From: Oceanispirochaeta sp.
GTDB lineage: Bacteria; Spirochaetota; Spirochaetia; DSM-2461
Direction of reading: 5' to 3'
NCBI GenBank assembly: GCA_963666275.2
Contig: CAXXOA010000001.1
Coordinates: forward strand, 736,001-800,000
DNA: 64,000 bases
The translations under genes were made by a program, and so were the position numbers. Below the pieces are notes generated by a model that had not been told where the DNA came from, did no database searches, and saw nothing but the letters and a program-made list of their open reading frames with translations. Position 1 is the stretch's first letter. Every line of letters begins with the position of its first letter. This document shows positions 52,934 to 61,913 of the stretch, in pieces.

Positions 52934-52948
52934 TTCTTCAAAACATGA

Positions 52949-53074
52949 ATCTTCGGGGCAGGGTGAGTCTTTTAAAGGCAATTCCCTACCGGCGGTGAAA
53001 GCCCGCGAGTCAGCGCAAGCTGATTGAACTGGTGTAATTCCAGTGCCGACGGTATAGTCCGGACGAGAGAAGAT
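52949..53074 (+). ncRNA. FMN riboswitch (RFN element)
   Basis: ATCTTCGGGGCAGGGTG..ATTCCC.ACCGGCGGT..AGCCCGCGA..CTGGTGTAATTCCAGTGCCGACGGTATAGTCCGGA.GAGAGAAGAT upstream of ribD. Confidence 0.96.
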
Positions 53075-53096
53075 AAACGTAAAGTGGATAACCATG

Positions 53097-53131
53097 CCCC
53101 GGACAGGTCCAATCTGTTCGGGGTTTTTTTT
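53097..53131 (+). terminator. Riboswitch expression-platform terminator
   Basis: CCCCGGACAG-gtccaat-CTGTTCGGGG-T8 between aptamer and ribD. Confidence 0.85.
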
Positions 53132-53219
53132 ATCTGTTCCGGTATTGCCGGATTTGGATAAAATCCTCATTTGCTTTTCTTTTTTTGCGTCACAGCCCCG
53201 TTTCCGGGGAGGAATTTTG

Positions 53220-54332
53220 ATGCATTCATCAGATGAACACTATATGCACAGAGCTCTGAATCTTGCCGCGAAAGGGGAGGGTCGGGTACTTCCGAATCCC
53301 ATGGTAGGGGCCGTTATTGTCCGGGATGGAAAAATCCTGGGAGAAGGATATCACGCCCGGTACGGGGGCATTCATGCGGAGGTGGCGGCTCTCCGGGACT
53401 GCGGGGAAAAGCCCTCGGGAGCAACTCTGTTTGTGACCCTGGAGCCCTGCTGCCACAGGGGGGCGGGGAAGCACAATCCTCCCTGTACGGAGGCCATACT
53501 CGGTTCGGGAATCCGCCGGGTAGTGATTGCCCGTCCTGATCCGAACCGTAAGGTTTCCGGCAGGGGAATCAGAGTTCTCAGAGATCACGGCATTGAGGTG
53601 AACACAGGGGTTCTGGAAAAAGAAGCTGCCGGTCTTAACAGGGTCTACGAAGTGATGATCCGGGAAGAGAGGCCCTATGTGCATCTGAAGGCTGCTGTTT
53701 CTCTGGACGGGTTTCTGGCGGCGGCAGACGGCACATCCAGATGGATCAGCGGCAGTGAATCCCGGGAGAAGGTTATGCAGTTCCGCCGGCATTCCGACGG
53801 TATCCTGACAGGAAGGGGGACTCTCTATGCAGATCTTCCCTCCCTGACCGTCCGGGAGGGGAATGAAGATATTCCCGGGGAGTTCCAGCCGGCTCGAATC
53901 TTTCTGAGTTCCCGGGGAACTTTACCCGGAAACTGGCGGAAAAAGGGCGGACCCGTATTCCTGTACCACAGTCAGAACCACAGTTCAGTTGGTTCTGTAG
54001 ATCCTCAGGTGCATTTTAAACCTGTACCGGAGGATTCCGAAGGCCTGTCGGTTTCTCATATTCTCAAGGATCTTCACAGTCAGAAAATCTACAGACTTCT
54101 TGTGGAAGGAGGTTCCCGGGTGTATGGCTCTTTCCTGCGCAGAGGACTCTGGGACAGACTGACCCTTTTTGTCGCTCCTGTGCTGCTGGGCAGGGGGGTC
54201 CCCTTTTCCGACGGCCTGGAGATCCCGTCCATTGCCTCTAAGCTGCATCTGCAGGATGTATCCTCCTCTGTGAGCGGCAAGGACCTTATGGTGGATGGTT
54301 ACAGGGAGGAGATCAGATGTTTACCGGCCTGA
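53220..54332 (+). CDS. ribD: Bifunctional riboflavin deaminase/reductase
   Basis: PNPMVGAV, HAE, TLEPC, PPC, SLDG, LVEGG. Confidence 0.95.
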   Translation: MHSSDEHYMHRALNLAAKGEGRVLPNPMVGAVIVRDGKILGEGYHARYGGIHAEVAALRDCGEKPSGATLFVTLEPCCHRGAGKHNPPCTEAILGSGIRRVVIARPDPNRKVSGRGIRVLRDHGIEVNTGVLEKEAAGLNRVYEVMIREERPYVHLKAAVSLDGFLAAADGTSRWISGSESREKVMQFRRHSDGILTGRGTLYADLPSLTVREGNEDIPGEFQPARIFLSSRGTLPGNWRKKGGPVFLYHSQNHSSVGSVDPQVHFKPVPEDSEGLSVSHILKDLHSQKIYRLLVEGGSRVYGSFLRRGLWDRLTLFVAPVLLGRGVPFSDGLEIPSIASKLHLQDVSSSVSGKDLMVDGYREEIRCLPA

Positions 54333-54946
54333 TTCAGAATCTGGGACGTCTGGAGGGACGGAGGTCCATACCAGGCGGGGAACTCCTGAGAATCCGTCAC
54401 GGCTTTAAAGAGCCCCTGGCTGAAGGAGCTTCGGTGGCAGTGAACGGGGTATGCCTGACTGTCACGGAAGACAGAAACGCTGTGTTCTCCGCCGAGTGCT
54501 ATTACGAAACAATCCGGAAGACGGCACTTCCTTTCCTGAAAACGGGAGATCCCATCAATCTGGAGCCGGCTCTGGCTGTGAACGGGATACTGGAAGGACA
54601 TCTGGTACAGGGGCATGTCTCCGCGGTGGTCCGGGTGGTGCAGGCTGTCAAAAAGGGCCGGGGACTGAAACTGACGGTTTCACTGCCGGAGAACCGTAAG
54701 GGTCTTATACAGGAAGGATCTGTGGCTCTGGACGGAGTGAGTCTAACCATCGCCTCTCTCGGTGCTGACCGCCTGTCGGTACAGCTCATCGGAGAGACTC
54801 TGGAAAGGACAACACTGCAGTTCCGCAAGCCCGGTGATCCTGTGAATCTTGAAAGCGATCTTCTCCTGCGGGGACAGCAGGAACAGATAGAACAGAAAAA
54901 AGAAACATTGACAATGGGCCGTCTGGCTCAATGGGGGTATGTATGA
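54317..54946 (+). CDS. ribE: Riboflavin synthase (alpha chain)
   Basis: MFTGLI, SVAVNGVCLT, GHLVQGH, DGVSLT, VNLESD. Confidence 0.95.
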   Translation: MFTGLIQNLGRLEGRRSIPGGELLRIRHGFKEPLAEGASVAVNGVCLTVTEDRNAVFSAECYYETIRKTALPFLKTGDPINLEPALAVNGILEGHLVQGHVSAVVRVVQAVKKGRGLKLTVSLPENRKGLIQEGSVALDGVSLTIASLGADRLSVQLIGETLERTTLQFRKPGDPVNLESDLLLRGQQEQIEQKKETLTMGRLAQWGYV

Positions 54947-56169
54947 AATCCGTGAAATTAACAGTGGAAGAAGCGATCCGGATCATTGCCGACGGGGGAA
55001 TGATCATTATGACCGATGATGAAAACAGGGAGAACGAGGGGGATCTGGTGGGTGCGCTCCGTTATGCGGAACCTGATATGGTGAACTTTATGGCTTCCCG
55101 GGCTAAGGGGCTCATCTGCTGCGCCCTGGAGGAGAGTCTCTGCCGGAGAGCCGGTCTGGCTCCTCTTGATACCAATGCGGGGCCCGATGCAATTCACGGG
55201 ACGAAGTTCTGTACTCCCATAGATGCCATTGAAGGGTGCAGTACCGGAATCAGTGCCCATGACCGGTCGGTGACCCTGAAAAGGCTTGTGTCTGATAACT
55301 GCCAACCGGAAGATTTCGCCCGTCCGGGGCATATGTTTCCCTGTATGGAAGCCCAGGGGGGGCTGAAAGCCCGGCAGGGGCATACGGAAGCCACTGTGGA
55401 ACTCTGCCGTCAGGCCGGCCTGGAGGGGGCCGCTGCCATCTGCGAGATCATGGATGATGACGGCACAATGGCCCGGTGGGACCGTCTGAATGAAATGGCC
55501 CGGGAATGGGGTCTTGGGATTCTGACGATTGCGGATCTGATGGCCTGGCTGGAAAAAAAAGAAGAGGCCCAGGCGGCGCCTGTACGGCTTCCCACAGAAG
55601 ATGGACTTTTCCGGATGGACTTTCCCCAACCGGCGGAAGAAGACTCCAGTACCGGAGGGGATCATGTCTGTCTGATCAGAAAGAGCGATGATGCCGATTC
55701 CAAACCCCATCCGGAGGGCCCTCTGGTAAGGATCCACTCGGAATGCCTGACAGGGGATCTTTTCGGTTCACTGCGATGCGACTGCGGTCGCCAGCTGGAA
55801 GAGTCCAGGAATCTGATCGCCCGTGAGGATGAGGGGTATCTGATATACCTTCGTCAGGAAGGACGGGGCATCGGGTTGAAAGCGAAAGCCGCCGCCTATC
55901 ATCTCCAGGATCAGGGACTGGATACACTGGAAGCCAATCTCCGTCTGGGGTACGAAGAGGACCTGAGAAGCTATAAAACAGCAGCCCGGTATCTGAAAAA
56001 GAAGGGAATAGACAGGATCCGTCTGCTCACTAACAATCCCGATAAAATTGAACAGATGGAAAAAGAGGGGTTCTGTGTGACCCGGGTGCCTCTGATTATT
56101 GAATCCCACAGAGAAAATGAATTCTATATGAAAACCAAACAGGAAAAAATGGGCCATCTGTCGGCCTGA
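54943..56169 (+). CDS. ribBA: Bifunctional DHBP synthase / GTP cyclohydrolase II
   Basis: DDENRENEGD, RPGH, GHTEA; RIHSECLTGD, RCDCG, QEGRGIGL, LTNNPDK. Confidence 0.96.
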   Translation: MKSVKLTVEEAIRIIADGGMIIMTDDENRENEGDLVGALRYAEPDMVNFMASRAKGLICCALEESLCRRAGLAPLDTNAGPDAIHGTKFCTPIDAIEGCSTGISAHDRSVTLKRLVSDNCQPEDFARPGHMFPCMEAQGGLKARQGHTEATVELCRQAGLEGAAAICEIMDDDGTMARWDRLNEMAREWGLGILTIADLMAWLEKKEEAQAAPVRLPTEDGLFRMDFPQPAEEDSSTGGDHVCLIRKSDDADSKPHPEGPLVRIHSECLTGDLFGSLRCDCGRQLEESRNLIAREDEGYLIYLRQEGRGIGLKAKAAAYHLQDQGLDTLEANLRLGYEEDLRSYKTAARYLKKKGIDRIRLLTNNPDKIEQMEKEGFCVTRVPLIIESHRENEFYMKTKQEKMGHLSA

Positions 56170-56199
56170 ACGATATACTGACAAGGAGATTATAAGAGT

Positions 56200-56682
56200 A
56201 TGAGTGAAATGGAAAGAGTTATAGAAGGGCAGTTAAATGGAGAAGGTCTGAAATTCACCCTTGTGGTGAGCCGTTTCAATGATCTGATTACCTCCCGTCT
56301 GGAAGGGGGAGCTCTTGACTGTCTGGTCCGTCACGGGGTCAAACGGAAGGATCTTAAGATATTGCGGGTTCCGGGAGCTTTTGAGGTTCCTCTGGCTGCA
56401 GGATGGGCGGCGGAAGAAAAACCCGACGGGGTGATCTGTCTGGGGGCGGTTATCCGGGGAGGGACTCCTCACTTTGATTATGTCTGCGCAGAAGTCTCCA
56501 AAGGTATCGCGGCAGTGACAATGGAGAAAAAACTCCCTGTGGGGTTCGGTATCCTTACCTGTGATACCCTGGAGCAGGCTCTGGAAAGGGCCGGCAGCAA
56601 AGGGGGAAACAAAGGATGGGAAGCCGCCGTTTCCACCCTGGAAATGGCTGTTCTGAAGAAAAATCTTACACAGGAAGTCTAA
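56200..56682 (+). CDS. ribH: 6,7-dimethyl-8-ribityllumazine synthase
   Basis: [28 protein letters not shown]. Confidence 0.97.
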
Positions 56683-56744: not shown

Positions 56745-57455
56745 TCAATAGAATGTGATTGTATGGGTTGTGGGAATACTGTTTGCCACCGCAACATCCG
56801 TAACATTCGCCACAGCTGTACTGGAAGCTGTGGCTCCCACATTATTCAGAGTGCCTGTGGTTGTTCCGATGGAAGTCATTCCGGCGTCCAGGACGTCAAA
56901 AGAGACAGTCACCTGGTCAATGGCTACAGCAGCCGTACTGGTAACATGGTAGCTGATTTCGAGCAGGGTGGAGCTTGTTCCCAGAGCCGCCCAGGAGTCC
57001 ACTGTCACAGTAATATCCCCTGCGGTCACGCTGCCTTTGGGGTTAGTGACGATAGAGAAGGCGGCGTTGATCAGGTTGCTCTCATTCCCTTCCGTATCCA
57101 CCGCCTGCAGTTCCAGTGTATAACTGCCCGCGGCAAGGGCTGCCCCGTCTATGACAAATTCCCATGCGGTCCCTTCGTGAATGAAAGTGGATTCGATGGT
57201 ATCGCTGTAGGCTGTATTGCCTGCAGCATCGTAAACCGTCACATCCAGGGATTCCGGATCATCATCCGGATCATCCACAGTCACGGAAATATAAATATCA
57301 TCTCCCAGGTAGACCGTTTCCGAATAGCTTCGAAAGGAGTAACTGGTTATGGAAAAGCCCGATAGTGCAGGATCCTTTCCTGCGGTGCTGTCGCTGATCT
57401 CACAGGACAGAAAAAGAGCGGGCAATAGAAATAGAATCCAGATACACCTGTTCAT
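56745..57455 (-). CDS. Lipoprotein with Ig-like beta-rich domains
   Basis: Spirochaetal lipobox LFLS-C; DPDDD, GSYTLELQAVDTEGNES; T/V/S-rich. Confidence 0.75.
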   Translation of the reverse strand: MNRCIWILFLLPALFLSCEISDSTAGKDPALSGFSITSYSFRSYSETVYLGDDIYISVTVDDPDDDPESLDVTVYDAAGNTAYSDTIESTFIHEGTAWEFVIDGAALAAGSYTLELQAVDTEGNESNLINAAFSIVTNPKGSVTAGDITVTVDSWAALGTSSTLLEISYHVTSTAAVAIDQVTVSFDVLDAGMTSIGTTTGTLNNVGATASSTAVANVTDVAVANSIPTTHTITFY

Positions 57456-57512
57456 ACATATAATTATACATCCAGTCGAATAATATGCCGGTTTTTTTTA
57501 AAAAAATATGAG

Positions 57513-57730
57513 TTCCCATCGTTTCAGCTCTATTGGGATATGATTTATTTGAGCGCCCGATGGGAAACCTCTCATGTCGCAGCCATCCTGTCTGCTTCCT
57601 GCGAGCCGCCTCCAGGACTATTCCGGCGTCCCTGCCGGAATACGCTCCATGTATTCGCGTCGTCCTTCCGGTTCGATTCCCATCGTTTCAGCTCTATTGG
57701 GATATGATTTATTTGAGCGCCCGATGGGAA
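57513..57730. repeat. Two exact 54-bp direct repeats (57513-57566, 57677-57730) containing the tRNA-Gly 3' end
   Basis: TTCCCATCGTTTCAGCTCTATTGGGATATGATTTATTTGAGCGCCCGATGGGAA x2, separated by a 110-bp structured spacer. Confidence 0.95.
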
Positions 57731-57787
57731 TCGAACCCACGTCTCCAGCTTGGGAAGCTGGGGTAATAGCCATTATACGACGGGCGC
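57716..57787 (-). tRNA. tRNA-Gly (anticodon CCC); CCA not encoded
   Basis: Acceptor stem GCGCCCG/CGGGCGC, anticodon arm CCAGC-TTCCCAA-GCTGG, T arm GTGGG-TTCGATT-CCCAT, discriminator T. Confidence 0.96.
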
Positions 57788-57987
57788 TGGTTCAGTATTC
57801 AGAATAGCCCCTATAATGGAGCAGGTCAAATAATTTTCTTTTTCAGAATGGGTTTTGTAACAGGGAAATCCCGGGATGGTTTTAACTGTAAGTCTGGAAA
57901 TTGCAAAGATTTTCGCATAAATTTCTGTTTTCCATTGTATGCTAATGTTAACGGCGGTCATTTTTTACAGTTTTAAGGTGGATCAGT

Positions 57988-59778
57988 TTGAAGGCATTTA
58001 ATAATGAAATATATCATCACGCCATTATGAATCTTAATCCTGACGGATTTTTTATAATCTCCACAAAAGGGGAAATCCTGGAGGTGAACAATACCTACTG
58101 CCTTATGTCCGGATACTCCCGGGAGGAACTGATCGGTCAGAAGCTTCAAATCCTGGATGATTTCAATATGAAAGACCTGTTAAGCAAATCCCGGAAAGAG
58201 GCGCTCTACAGGGGAGATGCCGTGCGTTTCAACCGTACCCATACAAAGAAGGACGGCTCGGATCTTCCTGTGGAAATCTCCGCCAGATTTGTAGACCCTA
58301 ATGACAGAGAATACCTGGCGGCTTTCTGCAGGGATCTGACTGAAGTCACGCTCTGCCGGGAGAGAATTCAAAAGCAGGATCAGATCATGAACAATCTGTT
58401 TGATCAGATTCCTGCGGCGGCCTATGAGATCCTTTCCTGCCCTGACGGATCCATCAGGATGCCCTTTGCTTCAAAAAACTTCCGGGATCTCTACGGTCTG
58501 AAAAGCGATGTGAATATCACGGAGGATGCCACCATTGCCTTTCAGACTATTCACCCTGAGGATCTGGACCGGGTTATGGCATCCATGAACCAGGCTATCG
58601 AGGATTACAGCTTCTGGAAATGCGACTTCAGAATCTGCCCTCCGGGGAATGATCTCCGCTGGATACGGGGGCAGGCCACACCGCAGAGGCAGAGCGACGG
58701 CTGCATCCTCTGGAGCGGATTTATGATGGATGTGACGGATCTGAAAGAGACCCACCGGAAGCTTGAAGAACTTTCTGCCCGGCAGAACAGCATTATAGAG
58801 GGGACAGGTGCGGGAACCTGGGAGTGGAATGTTCAGACCGGCGAAGTGATCATCAATCCCCGGGGGGCTGAAATCCTGGGGTATTCTCTCAGTGAAATCG
58901 GCAGGGTAGCGTATAAAACTAATATCTGGACTGATATGGCTTATCTGGAGGATCAGGACAAAGTCGTAACGGTCCTGAATGAACATCTGGAGGCAAAGTC
59001 GGATTTTCTGGACCTGGACTGCCGTATGAGGCATAGAAACGGAACTCCCGTCTGGGTGAACATCAGAGGCAAGGTTATCTCCCGGACAGTGGACGGGGAG
59101 CCTCTGTGGATGTATGGAACAACAGCAGACATCAGCAGAAGAAAAAGTCTGGAGCTTGCCATTCAACAGGGGCTGGAAGAGAAACAGATCCTCCTGAAAG
59201 AGCTCAAGCACAGGGTTGTGAACTCCTTTACTGTGATTCACAGTATGATTTCTATTCTTAAATATTCGGAGAATTCGGGCAGGGAAATGTCAGGCCTTGA
59301 AAAGATTGAGAATAAAATATCCTCTATAGCTCTGATGTACGATCTTCTTTATGCAACGGGCAGTGTGAATTCTGTTTCCCTCGATGAGTATCTGCAGAGA
59401 GTTCTGGATACTTTTCCGGAAGACTTCGGAAGGATCACACTGCTTTCCCGGCTGGATCCCCTGGAGATCGGGGTCGATCAGGCCGTGGCTGTGGGTATCA
59501 TTGTGAATGAACTGCTTACCAACTCCTATAAATACGCTTTTCCGGAAAAAGCACAGGGAATGATTCAGGTCACCATGAAAAAAACAGGAGATTCAGTGGA
59601 GGTTTCTGTTTCTGATGACGGGATCGGTTTTGATCTGAAGCAGGTGCAGAATGAAGGTTCCTTCGGTCAGACTATGATTATGGCTCTTTTAAAACAGCTG
59701 AATGCGGAACTGGAAGTTCAGTACAGCAGGGGAACTTTTGTGAAGTTTGAATTTCCTCTGGAGAAAATAGACAGGTAG
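57988..59778 (+). CDS. Cytoplasmic multi-PAS sensor histidine kinase (HisKA_2-type)
   Basis: Three PAS/PAC domains; LLKELKHRVVN; NELLTNSYKYAF, DDGIG, SFG. Confidence 0.9.
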   Translation: MKAFNNEIYHHAIMNLNPDGFFIISTKGEILEVNNTYCLMSGYSREELIGQKLQILDDFNMKDLLSKSRKEALYRGDAVRFNRTHTKKDGSDLPVEISARFVDPNDREYLAAFCRDLTEVTLCRERIQKQDQIMNNLFDQIPAAAYEILSCPDGSIRMPFASKNFRDLYGLKSDVNITEDATIAFQTIHPEDLDRVMASMNQAIEDYSFWKCDFRICPPGNDLRWIRGQATPQRQSDGCILWSGFMMDVTDLKETHRKLEELSARQNSIIEGTGAGTWEWNVQTGEVIINPRGAEILGYSLSEIGRVAYKTNIWTDMAYLEDQDKVVTVLNEHLEAKSDFLDLDCRMRHRNGTPVWVNIRGKVISRTVDGEPLWMYGTTADISRRKSLELAIQQGLEEKQILLKELKHRVVNSFTVIHSMISILKYSENSGREMSGLEKIENKISSIALMYDLLYATGSVNSVSLDEYLQRVLDTFPEDFGRITLLSRLDPLEIGVDQAVAVGIIVNELLTNSYKYAFPEKAQGMIQVTMKKTGDSVEVSVSDDGIGFDLKQVQNEGSFGQTMIMALLKQLNAELEVQYSRGTFVKFEFPLEKIDR

Positions 59779-59780
59779 AG

Positions 59781-61913
59781 ATGATGGAACAGAAAACAAT
59801 CCTGCTGGTGGAAGATGACAATCTGATAGCTCTGAGAGAACAAAGGGTTCTGGAACAGAACGGATATCGGGTTATCCATGTCCCGGATGGGGATACCGCC
59901 GTAAAGGAGGGAGCAGGTAATGTTTCTGTAGACCTTATTCTTATGGATATCAATCTCGGAACAGGAAAGATGGATGGAACCGAAGCGGCACAGATGATCC
60001 TGGCTTCCCGGGAAATCCCCATCCTGTTCCTTTCGTCCCATTCAGAAAAAGAGGTCGTTGAAAAAACCCAGGAGATCTCCTCGTATGGTTATATCACTAA
60101 AAACTCTGGAAACACTGTTCTTCTGGCATCCATACAGATGGCCTTCCGCCTCTTTCAGGCCCATCAGGATCTGAAGAGGAACAATACGTTTATACAGTCC
60201 CTGCTTGAAACATCTCCCGACGGTGTCTGGATTGTTTCGGAGGATGGATTGATTATCGACACAAATGAGACCTACTGCAGGATGTCGGGATACACCAGAG
60301 ATGAGCTTATGGGTAAAGATATTTCCGAACTGGATCTGCAGGATTCCTCCTCTGATGTCAGAAACAGGATTCAGGACATAAAGAAAAGAGAACTGGAAAG
60401 GTTTAAATCTCTCCATCTTCGAAAAGACGGCTCCATTCTCCCTGTGGACGTCTCCAGCCAGTTCATTACAAATAATGATGAGAGTTCCTGCATTGTATTC
60501 TGCCGGGATCTCTCCCTGCAGGAGGATCTTACAAGGCGGCTGCAGCAGAGCCGGGACCGGTTTGAACTGGTTCTGAAATCCATTCAGGATACGGTATTCT
60601 CTCTGGACAGGGAAAGGCGGTTTACAGAACTGTACAGTCCCTTCAGCAGAGAGCTGGGCCTGGATGAGCAGGATGTGATTGGAAAGACCTTTGAGGAAGT
60701 GAGCGCTGATCAGCATCTGGCTCAGATCCATAAAAGGCAGTTTGAAAAGGTGATGCAGGGAGATCCCTGTCTCTATCACTGGCAGTTCGGATTCAGGGGC
60801 AGAAAATTCTACAGACAGACCTCTCTGTCTCCCATAAAAGATGAGGTCGGCAACATTATCGGAGCCGCCGGAGTTGATCGGGATCTGACAGACCTCATTG
60901 TGGCCGAGAAAGAGCTGAAAAATCAGAAAGAGCTTCAGAGAACCCTTTTTCAGGAAGTTCCCGGAGCGATCTATCAGTATCAGTTGTTTCCCGACGGGAG
61001 ATCCTGCTTTCCTTTTGCTTCGGAAAATATTGAGAATGTGTATGAGGTGGTCCCCGAGCAGGTCAGAAAAGATGCTTCCCCGGTTTTCAGCCGGATCCAC
61101 CCGGACGATCTGGACCGGGTCAACGCCTCCATAGAAGAGTCACGGAGTAAACTGACAATCTGGACCAGCGACTACAGAGTCAACCTTCCCCTGAGGGGAC
61201 TCCGTTGGGTCAGAGGACGGGCCACTCCTCAGAGGCTGCCCGACCAGAGCACTCTCTGGCATGGCTACATCATGGATATTACAGATCTGAAAGAGGTGGA
61301 AAGGACTATTCAGAGAGGCCTGGAAGAGAAGAAAACGCTTCTCAAAGAGATGCAGCACCGGGTTATGAATACATTCACAATCATCAACAGTATGATTTCC
61401 CTTCTGATGAGCACCGAATCCTCCGCTGATGCGGTTAATGCACTGGGCAGAATTGAAGAGAAAATCCGGTCCATTGCGGCTATTTATGATCTCCTTTATG
61501 ACAGCGGCAATGTGCAGACCCTGTTTCTGGACGAATACCTTCTGGATGTGGCCCGGATGTACCATACCGATTTCGGTAACATCCAGCTGATTCCGACTCT
61601 GGACAGGATTGAAGTCAGTGTCAAACTGGCGATCCCTGTGGGGATTATTGTCAATGAGATCCTCACCAACGCCTATAAATATGCCTTTCCTGATTCCAGG
61701 GCGGGGGTCATCAGGATCAGCATGAAACAGAGCAAGGATTCCGCTCTGATCTGTATTGAAGATAACGGTGTGGGGGTCCGGAATCCTGATCATCCCGGGG
61801 AGTCATCTTTCGGTCATATCATGATGAAAGCCATGCTGGAACAGATCTCCGGTGATATGTCGATTGAAAACAGAGACGGCACTGCCGTAGAGATCCGTTT
61901 TCCCCTCTTTTGA
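59781..61913 (+). CDS. REC-multi-PAS-HisKA_2 hybrid histidine kinase
   Basis: N-terminal REC (LLVEDD, LMDINL); three PAS; LLKEMQHRVMN; NEILTNAYKYAF, DNGVG. Confidence 0.9.
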   Translation: MMEQKTILLVEDDNLIALREQRVLEQNGYRVIHVPDGDTAVKEGAGNVSVDLILMDINLGTGKMDGTEAAQMILASREIPILFLSSHSEKEVVEKTQEISSYGYITKNSGNTVLLASIQMAFRLFQAHQDLKRNNTFIQSLLETSPDGVWIVSEDGLIIDTNETYCRMSGYTRDELMGKDISELDLQDSSSDVRNRIQDIKKRELERFKSLHLRKDGSILPVDVSSQFITNNDESSCIVFCRDLSLQEDLTRRLQQSRDRFELVLKSIQDTVFSLDRERRFTELYSPFSRELGLDEQDVIGKTFEEVSADQHLAQIHKRQFEKVMQGDPCLYHWQFGFRGRKFYRQTSLSPIKDEVGNIIGAAGVDRDLTDLIVAEKELKNQKELQRTLFQEVPGAIYQYQLFPDGRSCFPFASENIENVYEVVPEQVRKDASPVFSRIHPDDLDRVNASIEESRSKLTIWTSDYRVNLPLRGLRWVRGRATPQRLPDQSTLWHGYIMDITDLKEVERTIQRGLEEKKTLLKEMQHRVMNTFTIINSMISLLMSTESSADAVNALGRIEEKIRSIAAIYDLLYDSGNVQTLFLDEYLLDVARMYHTDFGNIQLIPTLDRIEVSVKLAIPVGIIVNEILTNAYKYAFPDSRAGVIRISMKQSKDSALICIEDNGVGVRNPDHPGESSFGHIMMKAMLEQISGDMSIENRDGTAVEIRFPLF

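Follow-up and report, generated by a model that had tools for sequence, protein, structure and literature searches.

What is the trailer of a tRNA-Gly gene on the minus strand of an Oceanispirochaeta genome, in which parts of the tRNA recur around a GGA-rich block? The initial annotation of the window (the whole stretch of 64,000 nucleotides that was analysed) described a tRNA-Gly, a spacer of about 30 nt, a 16-nt antisense copy of the tRNA T-arm and acceptor, a block with 8 GGA triplets, a second copy of the tRNA 3′ end and a closing hairpin with a U tract, and read them as an RNA sponge for CsrA. Our analysis confirmed the observation. The tRNA gene is on the minus strand and has a CCC anticodon, the antisense copy is perfect, the spacer measures 29–30 nt according to the tRNA end chosen, and 8 GGA triplets were counted in a core of 110 nt. 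The second tRNA 3′ copy and the U tract are also present, the former within a larger direct repeat of 54 nt (Table 1). The interpretation was supported only in part. By structural class the feature is a tRNA-linked repeat (TLR), with a likely but optional CsrA-binding hairpin.

Along the minus strand, a promoter-like site is followed by the tRNA-Gly(CCC) gene, the spacer, the antisense arm, the GGA-rich core, the second tRNA 3′ end and the U tract. The element contains no gene. The 54-nt direct repeat is perfect, has a spacing of 164, flanks the core and holds the 16 nt of the tRNA that are duplicated here. The 54 nt form a unitig at a depth of 11.9 and 14.7 against 5–9 for its flanks (1.5 to 2 times; contigs from two runs of one sample, probably the source sample). 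This raised depth in both runs indicates that the duplication is real and rules out an assembly artefact as its source. Folding of the 293-nt region gave a z of −4.3. Of the pairs in the closing hairpin of the initial annotation, 9 are owed to the duplication; the interior of this hairpin measures 36 nt and it was not called as a terminator.

Table 1. Parts of the tRNA-Gly(CCC) locus, in minus-strand order (window positions).
Part	Position	Strand	Remarks
Promoter-like site, sigma-70-type	57801..57829	-	9/12 matches, 14 nt ahead of the tRNA gene; a consensus match only, 4 such sites found against 1.8 in shuffles
Host tRNA-Gly(CCC) gene	57715-57787	-	Rfam span 57716-57787
54-nt direct repeat, copy 1	57677..57730	-	tRNA 3′ 16 nt, 29-nt spacer and first 9 nt of the antisense arm
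Host-derived antisense arm	57670..57685	-	Antisense to 57722-57737 (T-loop, T-stem, first part of the acceptor strand); its partner in the family fold is the direct copy downstream
Conserved core of the tRNA-linked element, 110 nt	57567..57676	-	130.7 bits; this copy belongs to the model's seed
First hairpin, 4-bp helix, 11-nt loop ending in GGA	57642..57660	-	GGA in 55/86 copies
Middle hairpin, 9-bp stem, ANGGAX hexaloop at 57628-57633	57619..57642	-	Predicted CsrA site
Third hairpin, AGGAX pentaloop, mismatch under the closing pair	57579..57595	-	GGA/CGA toggle in the family
54-nt direct repeat, copy 2	57513..57566	-	Includes, at 57551-57566, the directly repeated tRNA 3′ end, which begins within the T-loop
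5-nt extension complementary to the end of the core, then 7-U tract	57500..57512	-	Predicted paired; possible weak terminator, not called by the terminator scan

Directly behind the element lies an ORF of 236 aa (window 56745-57455, minus strand), which has no Pfam match and whose N-terminus resembles that of a lipoprotein. Two tandem multi-PAS histidine kinases are encoded at 57988-61913 of the window (plus strand). The second of them has an N-terminal receiver-like domain, and the first, the only one scanned, is of the HisKA_2/HWE type. An FMN riboswitch (Rfam, 101 bits) precedes four riboflavin-operon-like ORFs at 52945-56682 of the window (plus strand), which by eye are ribD, ribE, ribBA and ribH.

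The trailer is not a one-off, and the multicopy, host-adaptable TLR family to which it belongs had been missed in the initial annotation. A search of the genome with the core gave 11 homologues, and a unique trailer was ruled out by those located behind other stable-RNA genes. BLAST and profile searches of the genome showed 10 full-length copies and one divergent copy, and all 11 lie 39–261 nt behind the 3′ end of a tRNA or tmRNA gene, on the same strand. The hosts are tRNA-Met (four units at two genes), tRNA-Asp (two), tRNA-Gly-GCC, tRNA-Gly-CCC, tRNA-Leu-CAG, a second CAT-anticodon tRNA and tmRNA. At each of these loci the antisense arm matches its own host, as does the direct copy where it is still left.

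A covariance model built from the 10 full-length copies (R1) had matches in 27 out of 29 genomes of the family and in 48 out of 151 sampled genomes of the class. A second covariance model matched 13 out of 151 genomes in a draw from the phylum, and it found 19 and 12 copies in two Nitrospinota genomes. One of the carriers is Breznakiella homolactica (L103), which is cultured and non-pathogenic. A covariance model was needed for this, since none of the 24 relatives' loci found by BLAST, mostly through tRNA matches, matched the core profile. A pattern scan over all genomes gave 78 stretches. Of these, 19 loci were confirmed by the models (16 in spirochaetes and three in Nitrospinota), and the rest were chance matches. 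The pattern demanded a GGA loop and was therefore blind to motif-less relatives, and the Nitrospinota genomes were reached through a pattern demanding the motif in three copies.

Among 94 family hits taken as loci, 80 had a tRNA within 1.5 kb upstream. An antisense match of at least 9 nt was found in 68 of these 80 and a direct copy of at least 12 nt in 63, the length being 16–19 nt in most intact copies. The other 14 hits had no called upstream tRNA; some of them follow cut or masked genes and a few are orphans. The hosts of 50 first units fell into 15 types. Copy number varied from 1 to 25 within the genus, and tandem arrays reached about ten units. Orthologous trailers without conserved GGA loops were named in the initial annotation as something that would refute its reading, and the element was not found behind three same-genus tRNA-Gly(CCC) genes (not necessarily syntenic). 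Position behind a stable-RNA gene, a host-copied 3′ end, and dispersed copies with tandem units and a conserved folded core are the features of the TLR class, and all are present in this family.

TLRs of E. coli have reportedly been known since 1978, and the earlier studies are said to be those of Egan and Landy in 1978, Rudd in 1999 and Sze in 2011. According to the accessible part of PMC8144298, there are 22 of them, their ends are 18–19 bp of the upstream gene, and they have no known function. The tyrT/tyrV units of 178 bp (RtT, RF00391) and rrA/rrB/rrF are, as far as these sources describe them, like our element in lying behind stable-RNA genes, in carrying a host 3′ copy, in forming tandem units and in size. 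The tyrT unit even has the same order of parts, with an antisense copy of the host 3′ end before the core. The rrB element lies behind a terminator and has GGA-looped hairpins that bind CsrA (PMC8144298, in the part seen).

The likeness does not extend to the RtT model (cut-off 45 bits), which gave no match on our own copies (up to E 10) or on the loci of seven relatives (up to E 1), while it scored four E. coli units at 133–138 bits. With model R2, E. coli rrB gave 14 bits (E 0.0024 over 4 kb) with the GGA hairpin aligned, which is a weak score. There are two further differences. The duplication here measures 54 nt and reaches into the spacer and the arm, and tRNA-linked copies here carry the CsrA motif, whereas the 19 tRNA-linked TLRs of E. 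coli are given scores below 0.01 as CsrA binders in the text seen of PMC8144298. No function is known for TLRs in that text, and that work, the sole study to connect TLRs with CsrA, dealt with just three rRNA-linked copies in Enterobacterales. Our literature search, with most subscription journals outside it, found no spirochaete TLR family and no hairpin loss accompanying that of csrA. The same design occurs across the spirochaete class and in two Nitrospinota genomes with strong covariation, and this offers many natural variants for study.

The T-loop is a site used by tRNA-targeting integrases, and tyrosine-integrase islands use this tRNA site. The element resembles such integrative elements in that a duplicated target 3′ end flanks the insert, starts in the T-loop and restores the gene. 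It differs from them in lacking an integrase, transposase or cargo gene within it, in its added inverted copy of the host end, and in its use of many tRNA genes per genome. In the window its neighbours are the ORF that had no Pfam match and one of the PAS histidine kinases. The contigs, which drop rare variants, showed neither a joint nor an excised form. At two loci of the genome the last repeat ends with an arm but no core, which is what gain and loss of units between direct repeats would leave. In the window's family, core identity was 0.64 between different hosts in one genome (19 pairs) against 0.60 across genomes. This excess is small, and gene conversion or shared ancestry could be the alternative cause. 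The same comparison in family f13 gave 0.75 (33 pairs, maximum 0.94) against 0.64. Judging from these sequence patterns, the element likely spreads between tRNA and tmRNA genes.

The fold of the family was supported by covariation. In an alignment of 86 distinct copies fitted to the structure model, 89% of cells are paired and two-sided changes occur in 37 of 40 pairs. None of 500 shuffles reached this, and slid controls were 26–43% paired. A MAFFT alignment of the 10 seed copies alone showed two-sided changes in 27 of the 40 pairs. The closing helices covary, and the element is closed by the antisense arm and the downstream direct copy. Inside this closure, two hairpins sit on a stem with internal loops and the third on another stem. 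Two GGAs opposed across an internal loop would form tandem G-A pairs. The arm pyrimidine tracks the purine of the host T-loop in 99 of 102 scored cases (8 unscorable), and in most cases the direct copy begins at the tracked base or after it. This indicates that the arm is copied from the host gene.

Two hairpins had been listed before, and they are mutually exclusive because bases 57638-57642 are common to both. The middle hairpin with its 9-bp stem is backed by the family covariation, but for the first hairpin a different helix was supported. Of the 8 triplets, only three lie in hairpin loops in the family fold; two are in stems and two face each other across the internal loop.

The arm might also act as a switch on tRNA maturation or turnover, by misfolding the pre-tRNA or exposing it; a coupling of this kind, through competition of the antisense segment with tRNA folding, had been proposed in the initial annotation. 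Once the arm is transcribed, its pairing with the T-arm is favoured over the cloverleaf by 8–16 kcal/mol, and no terminator was called before the arm at the tRNA-Gly(CCC) locus. These are secondary-structure energies, however, which ignore tertiary structure, the order of folding and the head start of the tRNA. As a family rule the coupling fails, since a crude scan that misses some terminators called one between tRNA and arm at 38 of 50 first units, to which this locus is an exception. Most copies would thus be made only by read-through. The arm moreover covaries with the downstream copy, and tRNA-Gly(CCC) genes of the same genus do without the element. We regard the switch as very improbable. 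With terminators elsewhere and a covarying downstream partner for the arm, competition with tRNA folding would at most be a local side effect.

The number of GGA triplets is itself mildly above chance only. The count of 8 compares with a mean of 5.06 in dinucleotide shuffles, 4% of which reach 8, and the three triplets in predicted hairpin loops compare with 0.61 (1.7% reach 3). At least 8 GGAs occur in 0.9% of random 110-mers of the genome. All of these figures are post hoc, since the region was chosen for its GGAs. Over the 86 copies the 8 triplets are conserved in 73, 55, 43, 43, 30, 6, 5 and 1, so that only one is kept in more than 80% of them. Four of the 8 lie in stems or the internal loop, and the many accessible sites that mark Csr/Rsm sponges are not seen here.

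This one triplet is in the loop of the middle hairpin. In the accessible text of PMC4005645, a high-affinity Csr/Rsm site consists of a hexaloop, ANGGAX, whose stem is closed by a C-G pair; X may be any base, and N can be missing at the cost of lower affinity. The middle hairpin fits the high-affinity form. Its loop has GGA in 73–75 of 86 copies, 31 of them with N, and varies as A(N)GGAX allows. The presence of csrA, on which the initial annotation depended, was confirmed: the gene, at C1:1735573 onward, lies directly behind fliW in the order flgL-fliW-csrA, flgL being a flagellin-family gene. The four flagellin leaders of the genome (G000 C1:1662732, 1984549, 1744759 and 1743658) each have two ANGGAX hairpins, one over the ribosome-binding site, and the stem of one leader is nearly the same as that of the element's middle hairpin. 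Hexaloop hairpins with stems of at least 6 bp number 14 in the genome; three of them are family copies and three are flagellin leaders. According to the part seen of PMC12327847, flagellin leaders are an established CsrA target in spirochaetes. The middle hairpin, by its predicted form, likely binds CsrA.

The element was also compared with known GGA-looped RNAs. CsrB, CsrC, RsmY and RsmZ share A(N)GGAX loops on C-G-closed stems with the element (PMC4005645, as far as seen). Unlike them, the element has one to three accessible sites and no own promoter that could be seen, is multicopy and host-adapted, and occurs in a host with FliW. TwoAYGGAY (RF01731) is also a multicopy structured RNA with AYGGAY-type loops and tandem G-A motifs, for which CsrA binding (PMC4333381) and a mobile-like nature (bioRxiv 10.64898/2026.09.22.753630) have been proposed, both in the text accessible to us. 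No tRNA link or host-derived ends are described for it in these sources. The Rfam models of the Csr/Rsm clan, RtT and TwoAYGGAY had no match at the locus, and the best Csr/Rsm score anywhere was 16.6 bits for PrrB_RsmZ against a cut-off of 44, on another copy of the family. Termite-flg (RF01729) and spirochaete flagellin leaders have a GGA hexaloop or pentaloop hairpin like the element but, unlike it, are 5′ leaders of flagellin mRNAs. RF01729 had no match over its cut-off in the genome and one sub-threshold match, elsewhere than at this locus. Two short words and the GGA hairpin are common to Termite-flg and the element's core, in the portion seen of the supplement of PMC2864571.

We then compared genomes with and without csrA. 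In the class sample no csrA match was found in 27 of 151 genomes. Of the 48 element-positive genomes 47 had csrA, but 77 of the 124 csrA-positive genomes had no element at the filter used. Elements in family f13 were found by a more sensitive model, and a short-form model gave matches in f13 genomes (14/151), with up to 12 copies each. In none of the 15 f13 carriers, all at least 93% complete, was csrA found, and flagellin was found in neither of the two f13 genomes tested; from this lack of flagella the family would seem to be Sphaerochaeta-like.

The short forms of f13 retain the arm, basal stem, first hairpin and direct copy, but have lost the middle hairpin and carry a different third loop. 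The GGA of the first hairpin is retained in many copies from csrA-less genomes. One full-length copy was found in f13, in genome G208, and in its intact middle stem GGA has changed to GUA. An A(N)GGAX hairpin was present in 0 of 43 distinct f13 copies (a part of all f13 matches), against 65 of 85 (one partial match shorter than 80 nt was dropped), 21 of 30 (Nitrospinota) and 20 of 32 in csrA-positive sets. In a rough tree of 111 columns the G208 copy stands apart from the short forms, so the hairpin was probably lost twice within f13. A separate loss is seen in genome G142: csrA is present there, but its six short units lack the middle hairpin, and every gene in a tRNA-Ser cluster of this genome is followed by a short unit.

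The csrA-less carriers are all from a single family, so these counts are not independent and amount to about two motif losses. Genomes G001 and G012 had no csrA match but do have flagellin genes. They were treated as assembly gaps and their copies kept in the csrA-positive set; the G001 assembly is 85% complete, and a flagellin leader of G012 still has hairpins of the CsrA type. No element was found in the other csrA-negative families f7, f18 (genus g23), f20, f21, f25 and f38 (20 of the 27 negatives searched, and 0 of 6 in a second search), and two complete csrA-negative genomes showed no TLR architecture behind 36 and 37 tRNAs. These lineages therefore provide no independent contrast. A weak model match in G030 was dropped, as it is not behind a tRNA.

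The persistence of the element in csrA-less f13 indicates that it does not need CsrA. A sponge would occur only where CsrA exists, but 15 csrA-less f13 genomes carry the motif-less element. The comparison separates what serves propagation, namely the scaffold with its host-copied ends, from a possible benefit to the host, the CsrA-binding loop. In the csrA-less lineage the CsrA-type hairpin has been deleted or point-mutated while the scaffold keeps spreading.

These results bear on the proposal that the trailer is a CsrA-titrating RNA. The genome does have csrA and the element a hairpin of the high-affinity type, as this proposal implied, but only one GGA is well conserved and the element thrives without csrA. 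In its strong form, the family would consist of distributed, true titrating RNAs under host selection, with the 11 copies tying free CsrA and flagellin synthesis to stable-RNA transcription. The tolerated variation of the middle loop would agree with this, as would the occurrence of the same hairpin in flagellin leaders, its loss from all csrA-less copies, the presence of csrA in nearly all element-positive genomes of the class sample and the binding of CsrA by RrB, an E. coli TLR, which occurs in vitro at about 100 nM (PMC8144298, in the part seen). Yet each copy offers one to three accessible sites against about 18 in CsrB, and the phenotypes of RrB are slight and in the same direction for deletion and overexpression (both from that text). 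Most copies also lie behind a terminator, the element reaches 12 copies per genome where csrA is missing, and G142 is a counter-example. In the portion seen of PMC4682653, it is proposed that spirochaetes, as a FliW-type lineage, use FliW rather than sRNAs, and the question is left open there. We find such titrating RNAs unlikely. The single well-conserved GGA, the hairpin loss in a csrA-positive genome and the many csrA-positive genomes without the element all argue against a CsrB-type sponge. The element is probably not a dedicated one and would at most be RrB-like.

The opposite position would be that the element is purely selfish or neutral, its loops serving its own propagation machinery and their likeness to CsrA sites being incidental. 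The third loop is informative here. It has GGA in 43 and CGA in 37 of the 86 copies with C-A-x-G-A-x-G retained, and in Nitrospinota it is mostly of the GUGA type, which indicates that similar loops are kept without GGA. A patchy distribution, the tandem arrays and the rise of short forms both with and without csrA would suit a selfish element as well. Against this, GGA is better kept in the middle loop than in the third (73 against 43 of 86), the sole full-length copy found without csrA has GUA for GGA in an intact stem, and the occurrence of G-U pairs and tolerated bulges suggests that the constraint acts on the RNA. A purely selfish or neutral element is, in our estimate, still more doubtful than the titrating RNAs.

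The reading we favour, and consider rather probable, is that of a tRNA-linked repeat, a folded cassette of about 130 nt whose ends are copied from the host, which likely spreads, and whose middle hairpin is likely an optional CsrA-binding module. A unit would be gained by recombination in the T-loop of a tRNA gene, by which the 3′ end and the sequence behind it are duplicated, and the host gene itself would be the template for the antisense arm, with fold-back template switching as a plausible mechanism. The unit would be transcribed together with the tRNA, directly at the tRNA-Gly(CCC) locus and by terminator read-through at most others; such read-through is reported for E. coli rrB (PMC8144298, in the part seen). 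The arm and the downstream 3′ copy would then pair to give a multibranched RNA that ends like the host tRNA and may be released by tRNA-processing enzymes. The released RNA would bind CsrA modestly, through a single strong A(N)GGAX site and one or two weak ones. Its effect would at most be a fine-tuning of flagellin translation on top of FliW control, as with RrB in E. coli, and not that of a CsrB-type sponge.

A wider proposal, to which we give a small chance though a slightly better one than to the titrating RNAs, is that TLRs are self-spreading structured RNAs that tailor their ends to their hosts, and that flagellated spirochaetes and Nitrospinota have come to use them as distributed CsrA-binding RNAs. 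If so, FliW-type lineages, for which no such RNA is established, would have RNA modulators of CsrA, and flagellin synthesis would be linked to tRNA transcription. The CsrA hairpin would then be a module that decays after csrA loss, and a general role for the TLRs of E. coli could be tested. Were binding confirmed in vivo, CsrA would have an RNA input in bacteria that are presumed to depend on FliW.

Several other arrangements were observed beside the family. In this genome, a different trailer follows tRNA-Gly(GCC) at G000 C2:974700-975023 (L009); in it, 15 nt of the tRNA end recur in direct orientation about 137 nt further on, and the family models do not match it. Genome G024 (L056) gave 27 weak model matches, several with equal scores; one that was examined is not behind a tRNA, and they are possibly a dispersed repeat that shares the family hairpins. 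Variant arrangements were seen at L249 of G183, L085, L277 and L336, with micro-repeats of arm and end behind tmRNA and elements 2–4 nt behind tRNA-Ser. Two apparent relics were found in the Oceanispirochaeta genome: a terminator, a short antisense arm and the first core bases behind tRNA-Arg CCG (G000 C1:2236649 onward), and a partial core behind tRNA-Cys (G000 C1:129003-129051).
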